Shown one piece after another: positions 6,001 to 9,000 of a stretch of 64,000 nt of DNA. Source of the stretch: Escherichia coli (GTDB lineage Bacteria > Pseudomonadota > Gammaproteobacteria > Enterobacterales > Enterobacteriaceae). Made by a program: the position numbers. The stretch lies in NCBI RefSeq assembly GCF_050320075.1, contig NZ_CP190018.1. One strand, given 5' to 3'. How positions within the stretch are numbered: the first letter of the stretch is position 1; each line of letters opens with the position of its first letter.

Positions 6001-9000
6001 GATGTCGGTAGGAAGTACTCATCATTTGGAAATGGTTTTTGTGTGGAAACAAAATTATATTCTAGTTGATGAGTACTTCTTTTTTTGTTGCACTTGGATT
6101 GTAAATTCAGCAGGAAAATAAAACGGCAGACGCGATGAGAGTACGGGTAATATGCTTTTTCATCATCATTTCAGTTTCCTGTATTGAGGTATTTTGGGTA
6201 TAACAACAGAGGGCACGGCTGTGCCATTAAAAATAGTTGGTGTATTATTCCGGTTTATTGCTCAGTATTATTACCAGGGAGATAACGGAACCCTGAATAA
6301 CGCAGTGGGTAATATTTTTCCTGTTATCAGATATTCTGCCTGTGCCGGAGTGAGTGTTACGGCGCGAACAGGGATATCCGGAGATATTTTTCGGGCCATC
6401 TGAAACCAGCCTTCTTTTTCTATATCCATTCTGACCGGATATAACGAAAGTACCGGATAAATAATGGTGTTATTAATTTCTTTTTTCTGCCTGAGCAGAA
6501 CGCCGCAATATTCTCCGGAATGCGTTCCGGCAAACGGAAAAGCATGCCAGAGAATAATGTCCATATTCTCGCGGGCTGAAATAATCCTGCAGAATATCTC
6601 CTGTGTGGCTGGCCAGTCTCCCGGACGATACAGTGGATAATGCACCCTGCCGTTCAGCCATTCCGGACTGAGATAAAACCAGTCAGCCAGTGCTGCAAGA
6701 ATCTCCCCGGTCAGATAGTCAGTGAGTCTGTCCGGCTCCCGGAAGACGGCAGGGCGGATATTCCAGGGGGCCAGTAATGCAGCCATCGTTGTTGCGCTGA
6801 TATCATGTGCCTGCATGATGTGCTCCATCCTGCTGAGAAGACGGCGGACGATGTTATCTGCAGGAAGAAACATTTCACTTAACGCGTCTTCGACCAGGAT
6901 ACGCGTCAGGTCAGAGACGGAAAGAGAAAGCTGTTCGCTCATGATACCAAGGGCATCCCTGACTCCCTGCGGATAACGAACCTGCAGGGGTGTGGACTGC
7001 AGCTGGCGATGACTGAGCAGGCATTCGCAAATTCGCTCCCTGTCCAGGGAGAGCATCATACGGGCGGCAATACCTGTGCTGTCAGTTTTCATTTCACCTC
7101 CATGCGGGTCAGCGTGTTTTGTTCATAAATTGAGTCTAAAGAGAGTGTTTTTTAAACGGAAGCGAGTTATTTCGATCGTTATGATCGAGTGTGTTTCAAG
7201 AGTGTTTGCAACTCTGTTTTAAGGGCGAATGAAAAGGATTCGGACAGGATGACCGTGATTAATTTAACCCGGAAGCAAAAGTTGATTTTCATTCTGATAT
7301 GCCTTCAGTTTGTTAACGGACAAATCATGACCCGTTCATCAATGTTTGCGGGTAGCTCGCCTGGCGTGGGAACGCGTTCACCCCGCTGAGCCGCCTGTGC
7401 CAGTGTGCGCAGCAACAATACGCTGGCATGAGATATTGCCAGTTCCCGGGTTTCTGCACGGGTTTCAAGGTCGAAATCGTGCAGTGTCACGACAAACAGC
7501 CCGTTTCTGCACCTGACAGTTGCAGGGTAGGGAACAAAATAAGGGGAAATTTTGCTGGTCTGTTTACGCCTGGCATCGAGTTTGCTGACCAGCTGATATG
7601 CCCGGAGATGCGTGTACCGTTTTAACATGTTCAGGGAGCGGTGGCCTGAAATAGCGGCAACTTCAATGACATTCAATGTACCAAGTTCGAAAAATCGGCT
7701 GATGGCTTCATGACGGAGATCGTGAAAATGCAGATTTTCTATTTTTAGGTCCAGAAGTGCGGTACGCCAGGCGCTTTTGAAACCGGATGAGGTGTAACTG
7801 AACACATTGCCGTTTATCTGTTGTGGCAGAATTTGCAGGTAGTTGCGAGCTTTCCGGGAGAGAGGGACATCGCGTGGTAAACCATTTTTCGTTTCAGGAA
7901 GATGCGCCACTCCGTGCTGCAAATCGAGGTGTTCCCAGCGTAATGTGAGGATTTCCCCCTGTCGCATTGCTGTTTCCAGGGCCAGATGGAAGATAACGTA
8001 GAGCTGCTGATTTTTATCTCTGAAATAGCGGGAGAGTCGGCGTTCTTCGCCAGAAGTCAGGCGACGATCGCGTCCACTACTGATTTTGGGTTTTCGGACC
8101 AGTTCAACAGGATTCATACGGCATGTCCCCCATTCCACACTGGCGATATTGAATAATGATGATAAAAGAGCAAGTTCAAGACGGACGGTGTTTCCGGTGA
8201 TTTGACGCCCTGTTCGTGGGTTAATTTGAGCCAAACGCTGATCCCGGTAAGTGGCGATATCAACGGTGGTGATTTCATCCATATAGCGCTCGGCCATAGG
8301 GTGACGTTTAATCACATTGACGCGATAAAACTCCTGCAGATGACCTTTTTTGTGGATGGATACTGTCTTCAGGTATTTGTCCAGCGCCCGGTTGAGAGTC
8401 ATTTTGCGAATTTTTATTTTTCGAAACATATCTGCCTTCCACGATAAATCCGAGGAAGGTAGGAATACTGAATCAGAAATGCAATGTCTCTGTGCCAATC
8501 CGGTTTGTGGCTTGGAGGCAATAAAGTGAACTATTCTGCCTGTAAATGGTATGAAGCGACCTCCGCACATTTTATCGGTGGCAGAAGTGGAGGTTCTATT
8601 TATTACAAGCCGATTCAGTGCCCTGCCGGGTACGTCATGACAGGTACAAGAATGTACGGCATCGGAGATGGTGTTGATGAAGAGCACGTCGATGCTTACT
8701 GTTGCCCTTTTGGTTAGATTCCGGCACCAGGAAGGTTGAGGCATGTCACTGTAATTGTGCCACCGGACTCATAATTTCCCCACGCATAATTATTCACATA
8801 CCAAACCTTGTTTTGGTCGGCGTATATCTGCTGAAAACCACCAAAAGGCGAGCCATTAAGGTATGTCCACGAGCAGTACGCATGTACGCCAATGCTCAGA
8901 TTACGAGTATTTTTCCCGATATTGTATGTACTGGTAGTGAAGTTCATTTTTGTCGTTGTCCAGATACCGGATTGGCACGGAGGCCAGTGCCAATCCGGTG

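Follow-up and report, generated by a model that had tools for sequence, protein, structure and literature searches.

In the 64-kb stretch of Escherichia coli DNA analysed here (the window), an open reading frame of 273 amino acids lies immediately upstream of an outer membrane protein gene that is interrupted by a transposon, which raises the question of what its product does and whether it is the functional partner of the disrupted gene. The answer developed below, to which we give an even chance, is that the protein would be an autoregulated transcription factor controlling its own gene, traE, and the outer membrane protein gene, traF.

Identity of the open reading frame and its neighbours

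The features of the locus are the following.

7305..8744, minus strand: rci, shufflon recombinase (Pfam Phage_integrase; annotated as a site-specific integrase)
7097..7101, minus strand: Shine-Dalgarno sequence GGAGG, read off the sequence 4 nt 5′ of the traE ATG (7092-7090)
6271..7092, minus strand: traE coding sequence, ATG start, 273 aa, stop codon at 6271-6273
6112..6169, minus strand: 5′ fragment of traF, its first 58 nt, within the region coding for the signal peptide
1363..6111: Tn6330, 4,749 bp, inserted in traF 58 nt past the ATG and composed of ISApl1 (1363-2432), pap2 (2436-3182), mcr-1 (3230-4855) and ISApl1 (5042-6111)
1361-1362 and 6112-6113: the 2-bp target duplication of Tn6330, AG
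216..1362, minus strand: 3′ fragment of traF, coding for a TraF_2 beta-barrel outer membrane protein (Pfam E 1.6e-69) that ends in ...SVTF

The open reading frame at 6271-7092 is a real gene under constraint, with an ATG preceded by a strong ribosome-binding site and dN/dS values of 0.19-0.24 in four pairwise comparisons. Rather than the stops or frameshifts that the earlier note had named as the mark of a non-coding region, homologues detected by tblastn are in a single piece at a coverage of at least 80% in 1,879 of 1,920 plasmid records, and the gene is also carried by 360 of 5,426 complete E. coli genomes.

The protein had been described as unassigned, but by sequence comparison it is TraE of the IncI plasmids (the R64-type or MPF_I TraE) and many records label it "conjugal transfer protein TraE". 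All 273 residues align with plasmid proteins annotated as TraE at identities from 100% down to 53%, and the TraE family HMM recovers the protein. The R64/ColIb-P9 (IncI1) TraE is a full-length orthologue (54% identity, E 4e-94), and the copies on pCT-like IncI-gamma/K plasmids are 99-100% identical to the allele in the window. The order rci-traE-traF is the same in the window, in pCT, and in R64-type IncI1 plasmids including pJIE174. The gene has thus been known and named since the work on R64, yet it is uncharacterised; a literature search for a characterised TraE yielded nothing past "function unknown", and descriptions of the bSEFIR domain considered below were likewise not found. Because the R64 protein has no known function and is dispensable for transfer, the name conveys no mechanism.

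Unlike TraE of the MPF_I plasmids, the copy in the window is on a chromosomal ICE of the PAPI-1/pKLC102/ICEEc2 type (MPF_G; family name from PMC6761156) at tRNA-Phe (pheV), adjoining yqgA-speC. According to the annotation of NZ_CP123240.1 at 905-954 kb, the element carries an integrase by tRNA-Phe, a TraI_2 relaxase, TIGR03756/03757 ICE proteins and a conjugative ATPase. The view that the gene is part of the island backbone therefore stands as regards the chromosomal element and needs qualifying as regards the segment itself: rci-traE shares 99.6% identity with pCT-like IncI-gamma/K plasmids, whereas the neighbouring pil genes reach only 67-77% identity to the same plasmids, which points to rci-traE as a recently exchanged mosaic piece. 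The rci frame extends to 479 aa as a mechanical ORF, and the annotated CDS is shorter, at about 374 aa.

The co-directional outer membrane protein gene downstream is, on the same kind of comparison, traF. Deleting 1363-6111 together with one copy of the AG yields a 400-aa ORF colinear with pCT TraF that starts MMMKKHITRTLIASAVLFSFNSTAA and ends ...SVTF, with a signal peptide and a C-terminal aromatic residue, and that matches Pfam TraF_2 (PF13729); the 3′ fragment also has sub-threshold PorV/FadL-like matches in NCBIfam. The earlier note had placed the gene between rci and the outer membrane protein gene at about 100 bp from the latter, and this agrees with rci lying immediately upstream and with a gap of 101 nt between the traE stop codon and the traF ATG at 6169. 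It was also right that polar effects of Tn6330 spare the gene, since traE lies upstream of the insertion, which leaves TraE and its upstream region intact and abolishes the traF product.

Taken literally, the database name would make TraE a structural or assembly part of the conjugation apparatus, whether the IncI T4BSS or the thin type IV pilus, in keeping with the position of IncI traE between the pil/shufflon cluster and traH-traY and with the use of TraE as an MPF_I marker profile. We consider this highly improbable. TnSeq of pESBL found traE and traF dispensable for transfer, with transfer unreduced by traE insertions (non-essential probability 0.93) and no maintenance phenotype (probability of "essential for maintenance" 0.07; PMC4288162), and PMC6112013 states, citing earlier work, that R64 transfer does not need traEFG, and also that the IncM plasmid pCTX-M3, which has a homologous T4BSS, is without these genes. 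The traE-traF pair is also present in MPF_G ICEs that lack pil/rci or MPF_I genes, for which reason its assignment to a thin-pilus module was dropped. Finally, TraE appears to consist of soluble DNA-binding folds, and inspection of the sequence by eye revealed no apparent signal peptide or membrane segment.

Domains of TraE and their relatives

Three regions can be distinguished in the protein.

TraE residues ~35-72: RHH-like N-terminus
TraE residues ~80-148: XRE-type HTH
TraE residues ~150-273: alpha/beta C-terminal domain

The absence of a recognisable motif, as claimed before, holds for searches of Pfam, NCBIfam, PADLOC and PHROGs, which assign no family to TraE and in which the three-domain combination is unmatched; it does not hold for structure and profile searches, which place an XRE-type HTH with a five-helix fold in the centre of the protein and an RHH-like segment at its N-terminus. 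Searches of Pfam HTH_3/HTH_31 and their relatives gave no match at E<=10 with either the full protein or isolated HTH fragments, and PDB sequence searches gave no significant match. The HTH is comparable to those of C.AhdI, pSK41 Cop, the BldD N-terminal domain, ICEBs1 ImmR and P22 c2, but it is central in TraE and flanked by other domains, in contrast to its N-terminal position in XRE/Cro-C1 regulators.

The best PDB matches of the N-terminus are CopG and MazE7, both below significance (E 0.14-0.17), the bit scores of RelB and RHH_5 fall under the Pfam gathering cut-offs, and the AF2 monomer has low confidence over residues 1-79 with no strand modelled. The strand, helix, G-I/L-S turn and second helix are nevertheless in register with those of CopG (pMV158) and MazE7. 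RHH proteins (CopG/Arc/MetJ) are obligate dimers in which a two-stranded sheet enters the major groove, and RHH repressors typically autoregulate via repeats or palindromes. The models and profiles taken together suggest one confident DNA-binding fold in TraE, the HTH, and one probable fold, the RHH.

The sub-threshold matches to RelB and MazE7 could also indicate a RelB-like antitoxin or the regulator of an addiction module. This has the least to recommend it of the readings considered and only a minimal probability, as the conserved neighbour is a TraF_2 outer membrane barrel with a signal peptide, no toxin gene is adjacent, and the pESBL screen showed no maintenance defect. In addition, TraE differs from CopG, RelB and MazE7 in its added HTH and 120-aa C-terminal domain, and at 273 aa it does not resemble RelB. 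For the latter domain an RNase H-like nuclease was considered and rejected because no acidic residue in it is conserved across the TraE family.

Over ~220 columns, the HTH and C-terminal module of TraE shows homology to P0150, in the C-terminal part of the latter (hhalign probability 99.5%, E 4e-23). The N-terminus of P0150 is a SEFIR domain that matches the PADLOC bSEFIR profile (E 5e-61), covering only the SEFIR part of that profile, and a patatin gene adjoins the P0150 gene. Other weak relatives have TIR_2, SMEK_N, DUF4062 or REase N-termini, and those fused to TIR or nuclease domains share the HTH region. No SEFIR or TIR effector domain was matched in TraE itself in PADLOC or Pfam; the RHH stands where the SEFIR/TIR-fused proteins bear the effector domain. 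As the HTH and C-terminal part also occurs in fusions to SEFIR-type effectors, and the HTH region in fusions to TIR or nuclease domains, this part is probably the half of TraE that receives a signal, while the RHH would bind DNA as the output.

This kinship raises the prospect that TraE-TraF is a conflict module for surface exclusion or for defence against phage and foreign DNA, in which an invader would be detected by the HTH and C-terminal part, whereupon the RHH would activate TraF and, in ICE-type loci, neighbouring membrane protein and lipoprotein genes, so as to remodel the envelope. Both the P0150 homology and the effector-bearing relatives are consistent with such a role, as are the dispensability of the pair for transfer and the conserved membrane protein and lipoprotein genes that flank traE-traF in ICE-type loci. 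We regard it as unlikely: neither TraE nor TraF matches a PADLOC defence model, and a domain common to defence proteins does not confer their function. It also overlaps with the regulator reading: TraE would be a regulator in both, and the two differ only in the signal and the purpose.

The upstream palindrome and the traE-traF pair

Three elements in the non-coding sequence around traE bear on its regulation.

7172..7188: TCGATC-N5-GATCGA, a perfect palindrome containing two GATC (Dam) sites, candidate TraE operator, 79 nt 5′ of the traE ATG
7114..7207, minus strand: four AAACAC direct repeats around the palindrome (7207-7202, 7196-7191, 7150-7145 and 7119-7114)
6212..6225, minus strand: short GC hairpin GGCACAGCCGTGCC between traE and traF, with a T-rich tail, a terminator-like site

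The palindrome is the sole match in the window at up to one mismatch (chance expectation 0.16), and of 17 loci, 12 have it, each in a single copy. These copies are 5′ of the traE-like gene wherever that gene was placed; the measured distances to the ATG are 65-106 nt, with 79 nt for R64-type traE as in the window. Conservation among nine sequences is 100% at each of the 12 core positions, compared with 0.61 in the flanks. The motif precedes traE in nine lineages and is degenerate in a tenth; in the Salmonella lineage L039, whose TraE is 41% identical, it reads TTGATC-N5-GATCTA and lies ~330 nt upstream. When an extended operator pattern was run against GTDB genomes, only two of the 17 matches, in Erwinia, were real, and the other 15 were chance occurrences in unrelated taxa. 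Of the AAACAC repeats, which may possibly be secondary binding sites (with low confidence), pJIE174 has three, two of them at matching offsets (-104 and -58), and ATACA(T) repeats take their place in ICE-type loci. We also discarded the idea that the palindrome forms part of oriT: its neighbour on IncI plasmids is traE, and not nikA/nikB, the relaxase genes that cluster with oriT in R64 and mark it in these plasmids.

It could be argued that the palindrome serves another factor, such as a host protein, Dam/SeqA or an ICE or plasmid regulator, and that TraE would be a partner of TraF without regulating it, perhaps as an adaptor or chaperone in the cytoplasm that uses its HTH-like domains to contact other proteins. 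The two GATC sites are the best-preserved part of the motif even in L039, where a Dam-family methyltransferase gene directly follows traF, a sigma-70 consensus scan of the traE strand found no promoter upstream of traE or near the palindrome, and the RHH matches of TraE are sub-threshold. Against this, the motif accompanies traE on IncI plasmids and MPF_G ICEs across differing hosts and genomic contexts, for which a cis-encoded factor is the simplest explanation, and TraE is itself predicted to have DNA-binding folds. We know of no precedent for a cytoplasmic chaperone of a Sec-exported barrel, and this alternative seems improbable.

The functional partnership with the disrupted gene that the earlier note had proposed is well supported by the gene order: traF directly follows traE in 10 of 10 lineages examined, down to 24% identity. 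Counting against the regulator reading, more distant members of the TraE family are orphans without traF. Co-transcription of the two genes, probable according to the earlier note, is not assured, because the terminator-like hairpin lies between them. The hairpin has seven pairs, three with compensatory changes, across six lineages (RNAalifold), its single-sequence z-score being only -0.88, and may be an attenuator or an mRNA-stability element.

The preferred regulator reading joins these elements. TraE would be a cytoplasmic three-domain DNA-binding protein that, as a dimer or higher oligomer, binds the palindrome and thereby sets transcription of traE-traF, and hence the level of the TraF_2 barrel in the outer membrane. 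As to the direction of control, repression would fit the more usual mode of RHH and XRE proteins. The Dam sites may give methylation a role: two GATC sites within a conserved palindrome of the protein-binding type in Dam-positive Enterobacterales recall the Dam-sensitive sites of pap/Lrp, agn43/OxyR and pSLT traJ, a likeness that is one of resemblance only.

A proposed regulator, its putative operator and an outer membrane target

New here are the constant linkage of traE and traF, the palindrome upstream of traE, and the homology of the HTH and C-terminal part to a SEFIR protein. From the sequencing of the R64 transfer region onwards, the role of both genes has been given as "unknown", and there is now a hypothesis that names a regulator, an operator and an outer membrane target. 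Almost two thousand sequenced resistance plasmids of the IncI complex carry traE and traF, as do chromosomal ICEs in E. coli, Salmonella, Erwinia and related bacteria.

For the strain itself the practical import is modest. The colistin-resistance transposon Tn6330, which carries mcr-1, has destroyed the accessory gene traF. Since the plasmids tested transfer without traF, we do not expect the insertion to have inactivated the element. On the regulator reading, Tn6330 would have left the regulator and its site in place without their cargo.

A bolder and rather doubtful extension is that TraE is a one-component sensor-regulator with a sensing module of the SEFIR class and an operator whose Dam sites make traE-traF methylation-dependent, with an envelope module deployed transiently after entry or replication, or on attack by an invader. 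That envelope module would be the TraF barrel, joined in ICE-type loci by the membrane protein and the lipoprotein. The link of the sensor module to SEFIR and TIR proteins may interest those who study defence systems, and, if the extension is true, traE-traF would constitute an unrecognised accessory circuit common to IncI plasmids and PAPI-1-type ICEs.

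Identity and constraint of traE

The open reading frame that the earlier note had taken for an unassigned protein is traE of IncI plasmids, an already known gene named in plasmid records and thus of low novelty as a find. A 1.25-kb query around it matches 447 plasmid records, with identity of 99% or more in 278; these records label the gene either 'conjugal transfer protein TraE' or simply 'hypothetical protein'. The order rci-traE-traF is common to the window, the IncI-gamma/K plasmid pCT and the IncI1 plasmid pJIE174. The R64-type TraE allele differs more, at 54% identity to TraE of the window. 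The features concerned are the following.

1363-6111: Tn6330 (4,749 bp), bounded by ISApl1 copies (1363-2432, 5042-6111); target duplication of 2 bp, AG
6212-6225: short hairpin with T-rich tail in the traE-traF spacer, terminator-like
6271..7092, minus strand: traE, 273 aa, ATG start (ORF listing)
7172-7188: palindrome, the only match at no more than one mismatch in 64 kb (0.16 expected)

traE is a real gene under constraint, with a dN/dS of 0.19-0.24 in four comparisons and a Shine-Dalgarno-like GGAGG 4 nt 5′ of its ATG. It is found by tblastn in 1,920 plasmid records and is unbroken at no less than 80% coverage in 1,879, rather than interrupted by the stops or frameshifts that had been proposed as signs of a non-coding region; among 5,426 complete E. 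coli genomes it is present in 360, at 59 chromosomal and 340 plasmid places. Its upstream neighbor is the shufflon recombinase gene rci (Pfam Phage_integrase match), and downstream, between its stop at 6271-6273 and the true traF start, an ATG at 6169, lies a gap of 101 nt, in agreement with the co-directional arrangement and spacing of about 100 bp described earlier. The observation as reported is confirmed, and the reading built on it stands for the island, the orientation, the absence of polarity and the idea of a functional partner and falls for 'unassigned' and 'no motif'. As cited in PMC6112013, R64 transfer needs none of traE, traF and traG, and TnSeq of the IncI1 plasmid pESBL gave scores for being non-essential for transfer of 0.93 for TraE and 1.00 for TraF (PMC4288162). 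Guglielmini et al., who made a TraE profile for MPF_I, noted that the function of TraE 'is still unknown' (PMC4027160); no later characterization of TraE was found in the literature searched.

The host element and the Tn6330 insertion

Except for the shufflon arrangement, the window is ~100% identical to the chromosome of E. coli YZLc1-3 (NZ_CP123240.1), whose annotation places an integrative conjugative element (ICE) at tRNA-Phe, beside yqgA-speC, with genes for an integrase, a TraI_2 relaxase, a UvrD-like helicase, TIGR03756/03757 ICE proteins and a conjugative ATPase, together with a type IVb pilus cluster (pilL-pilV), a shufflon and rci. The element belongs to the PAPI-1/pKLC102 family, which includes ICEEc2 and ICEKp2 (PMC6761156), and the word 'island' was therefore well chosen. 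In the shufflon (8492-10298), segments are inverted and relocated relative to the otherwise colinear NZ_CP123240.1, which fits an active Rci shufflon or an assembly difference. The island is a mosaic: as identity to pCT is 99.6% across window 6112-8511 (the traF 5′ end, traE and rci) and only 67-77% in the pil genes (10575-16730), the rci-traE piece appears to have been recently exchanged between IncI-gamma/K plasmids and the ICE. The remainder of traF is 95% identical to pCT, and part of the shufflon 99.4%.

The gene called an OMP gene in the earlier note is traF, with a Pfam TraF_2 match (E 1.6e-69) and sub-threshold PorV/FadL-like NCBIfam matches. The mcr-1 transposon Tn6330 entered it 58 nt into the gene, within the signal-peptide coding region, and its excision in silico restores a 400-aa TraF colinear with pCT TraF. 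traE lies upstream of the insertion and is therefore out of reach of polar effects, as had been claimed. A 397-aa ORF (216-1409, minus strand) starts inside the ISApl1 end (1363-1409) and lacks the native signal peptide; PGAP calls essentially this truncated gene an intact 'conjugal transfer protein TraF', so that the disruption is masked. Between the two ISApl1 copies identity is 99.8%, and as the annotation shows an internal stop in the left transposase, only one copy may encode an active enzyme.

Linkage of traE and traF

A TraF homologue lies directly 3′ of the TraE homologue in all ten lineages with DNA when all ORFs are scored (window/pCT and the fetched loci L017, L016 of IncI1, L003, L005, L011, L013, L015, L033 of Erwinia oleae and L039, a Salmonella MPF_I plasmid), a linkage that is established here and supports the candidacy of traE as functional partner of the OMP gene. 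The TraE-related proteins P0048, P0049 and P0054 (24-27% identity to TraE) are encoded in ICEs of the same family beside cutA-dsbD or speC, where int and TraI_2 run leftward and gene X, the traE-like gene, TraF_2 and a lipoprotein gene run rightward, with no pil or rci genes at the site. More distant members (P0053, P0070, P0125) are orphans without traF. Gene X, for a membrane protein of 166-202 aa whose N-terminus is hydrophobic, has homologues across five lineages, and the ~177-aa lipoprotein gene downstream of traE-traF is conserved in three; neither has a Pfam family and both are absent from the window. In L005 they lie at 7255-7818 and 10361-10894, respectively, with equivalents in L011, L013, L003 and L039. 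The traE-traF pair, or in ICEs the four-gene set, is thus a module of envelope genes that includes one cytoplasmic, putatively DNA-binding protein.

Several loci show further variation around the pair. In L017 (NZ_CP146514.1, TraE 76% identical), traF is frameshifted into two overlapping frames at 3846-5110 with traE intact, a second, independent traF loss with traE kept. The Salmonella salamae MPF_I plasmid L010 (NZ_CP022141.1) encodes a distant 384-aa family member (5893-7047) without traF or palindrome; its gene follows one for a lytic transglycosylase, and DGQHR/PAPS-reductase (Dnd/Dpd-like) genes are close by. In L013, the ICE encoding P0054, defense cargo adjoins the module, as the RelB, CTD10, MC6 and DUF2326 genes at 13838-16961, a few kb 3′ of traF, encode domains known from NTP-dependent conflict systems. 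The window has a remnant DUF7446 pseudogene directly 3′ of traF (1-145, minus strand), and in L039 the stretch after traF (12144-13788) holds DUF7446 in intact form together with a gene for a Dam-family (MethyltransfD12) methyltransferase, of note because the candidate traE operator carries two GATC sites.

TraE architecture and its candidate operator

TraE matches no family in Pfam, NCBIfam, PADLOC or PHROG, yet the statement that it has no recognizable motif does not hold, as a module of helix-turn-helix (HTH; XRE-type, ~80-148) and C-terminal part is detected, together with a probable ribbon-helix-helix (RHH)-like N-terminus. A word-indexed search returns close relatives only (40 clusters at 40% identity or more) and an exhaustive HMM search 141 cluster representatives, most of 290-390 aa, with TraE ~30-170 as the common part. 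The HTH fold is established; an AF2 model on the family alignment (pLDDT 77.7) has confidence that is high beyond residue 79 but low in 1-36 and 72-79. Residues ~35-72 follow the family pattern P-L-x-V-R-[YF]-x-P-x-V-R-x-x-L-x-x-x-S-x-x-L-G-I-S-x-S-[ED]-L and probably form an RHH: the three top PDB matches of the wider family profile are the RHH proteins MazE7 and CopG, in register but at E 0.14-0.17, and Pfam RelB and RHH_5 match below threshold in four of six fragments. Low monomer confidence here would be as expected of an obligate-dimer fold.

TTCGATC-N5-GATCGAA is found in all traE upstream regions compared, its core, TCGATC-N5-GATCGA, being present as a single copy in each of 12 out of 17 loci and lying upstream of the traE-like gene wherever its position was examined, at measured distances of 65-106 nt from the ATG. 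Conservation of the motif is established by an anchored comparison of nine sequences: it is 100% at the 12 palindromic positions, 0.80 in the spacer and 0.61 in the flanking sequence. Among 100,044 species-representative genomes an extended pattern has 17 hits; the two from Enterobacterales (Erwinia) immediately precede a traE-like gene, and the remaining 15 have no such gene nearby. The 41%-identity Salmonella lineage (L039) has a degenerate TTGATC-TGAAT-GATCTA ~330 nt upstream with both GATC sites kept, the flanking direct repeats differ by lineage (AAACAC in IncI-type and ATACA(T) in ICE-type loci), and two distant orphan relatives are preceded closely by different palindromes, of which one is based on TCGAT. 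The simplest reading, which has about an even chance of being correct, is that TraE would bind the palindrome and autoregulate the traE-traF unit; we infer the binding itself, the direction of control and the co-transcription of traE with traF. The spacer hairpin is kept in position with three compensatory pairs across six lineages, is thermodynamically unremarkable, and may attenuate read-through into traF.

The TraE HTH and C-terminal module aligns with residues 193-430 of P0150 (220 columns, probability 99.5%, E 4e-23, hhalign), a protein with an N-terminal SEFIR domain matching PADLOC bSEFIR, whose gene adjoins a patatin gene. With this homology to part of a SEFIR protein, a defense or exclusion role for traE-traF would be conceivable, though unlikely. 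Other weak relatives have TIR_2, SMEK_N, DUF4062 or restriction-endonuclease-like N-termini, and a constant C-terminal module with variable effector N-termini is typical of conflict-system sensor modules. In TraE an RHH DNA-binding domain would take the place of the effector, and the pattern supports a reading of TraE as a sensor-regulator. Taken together, the domain architecture, the Dam-site palindrome and the linkage in ten of ten lineages provide a testable mechanism that is unstated in the literature searched.
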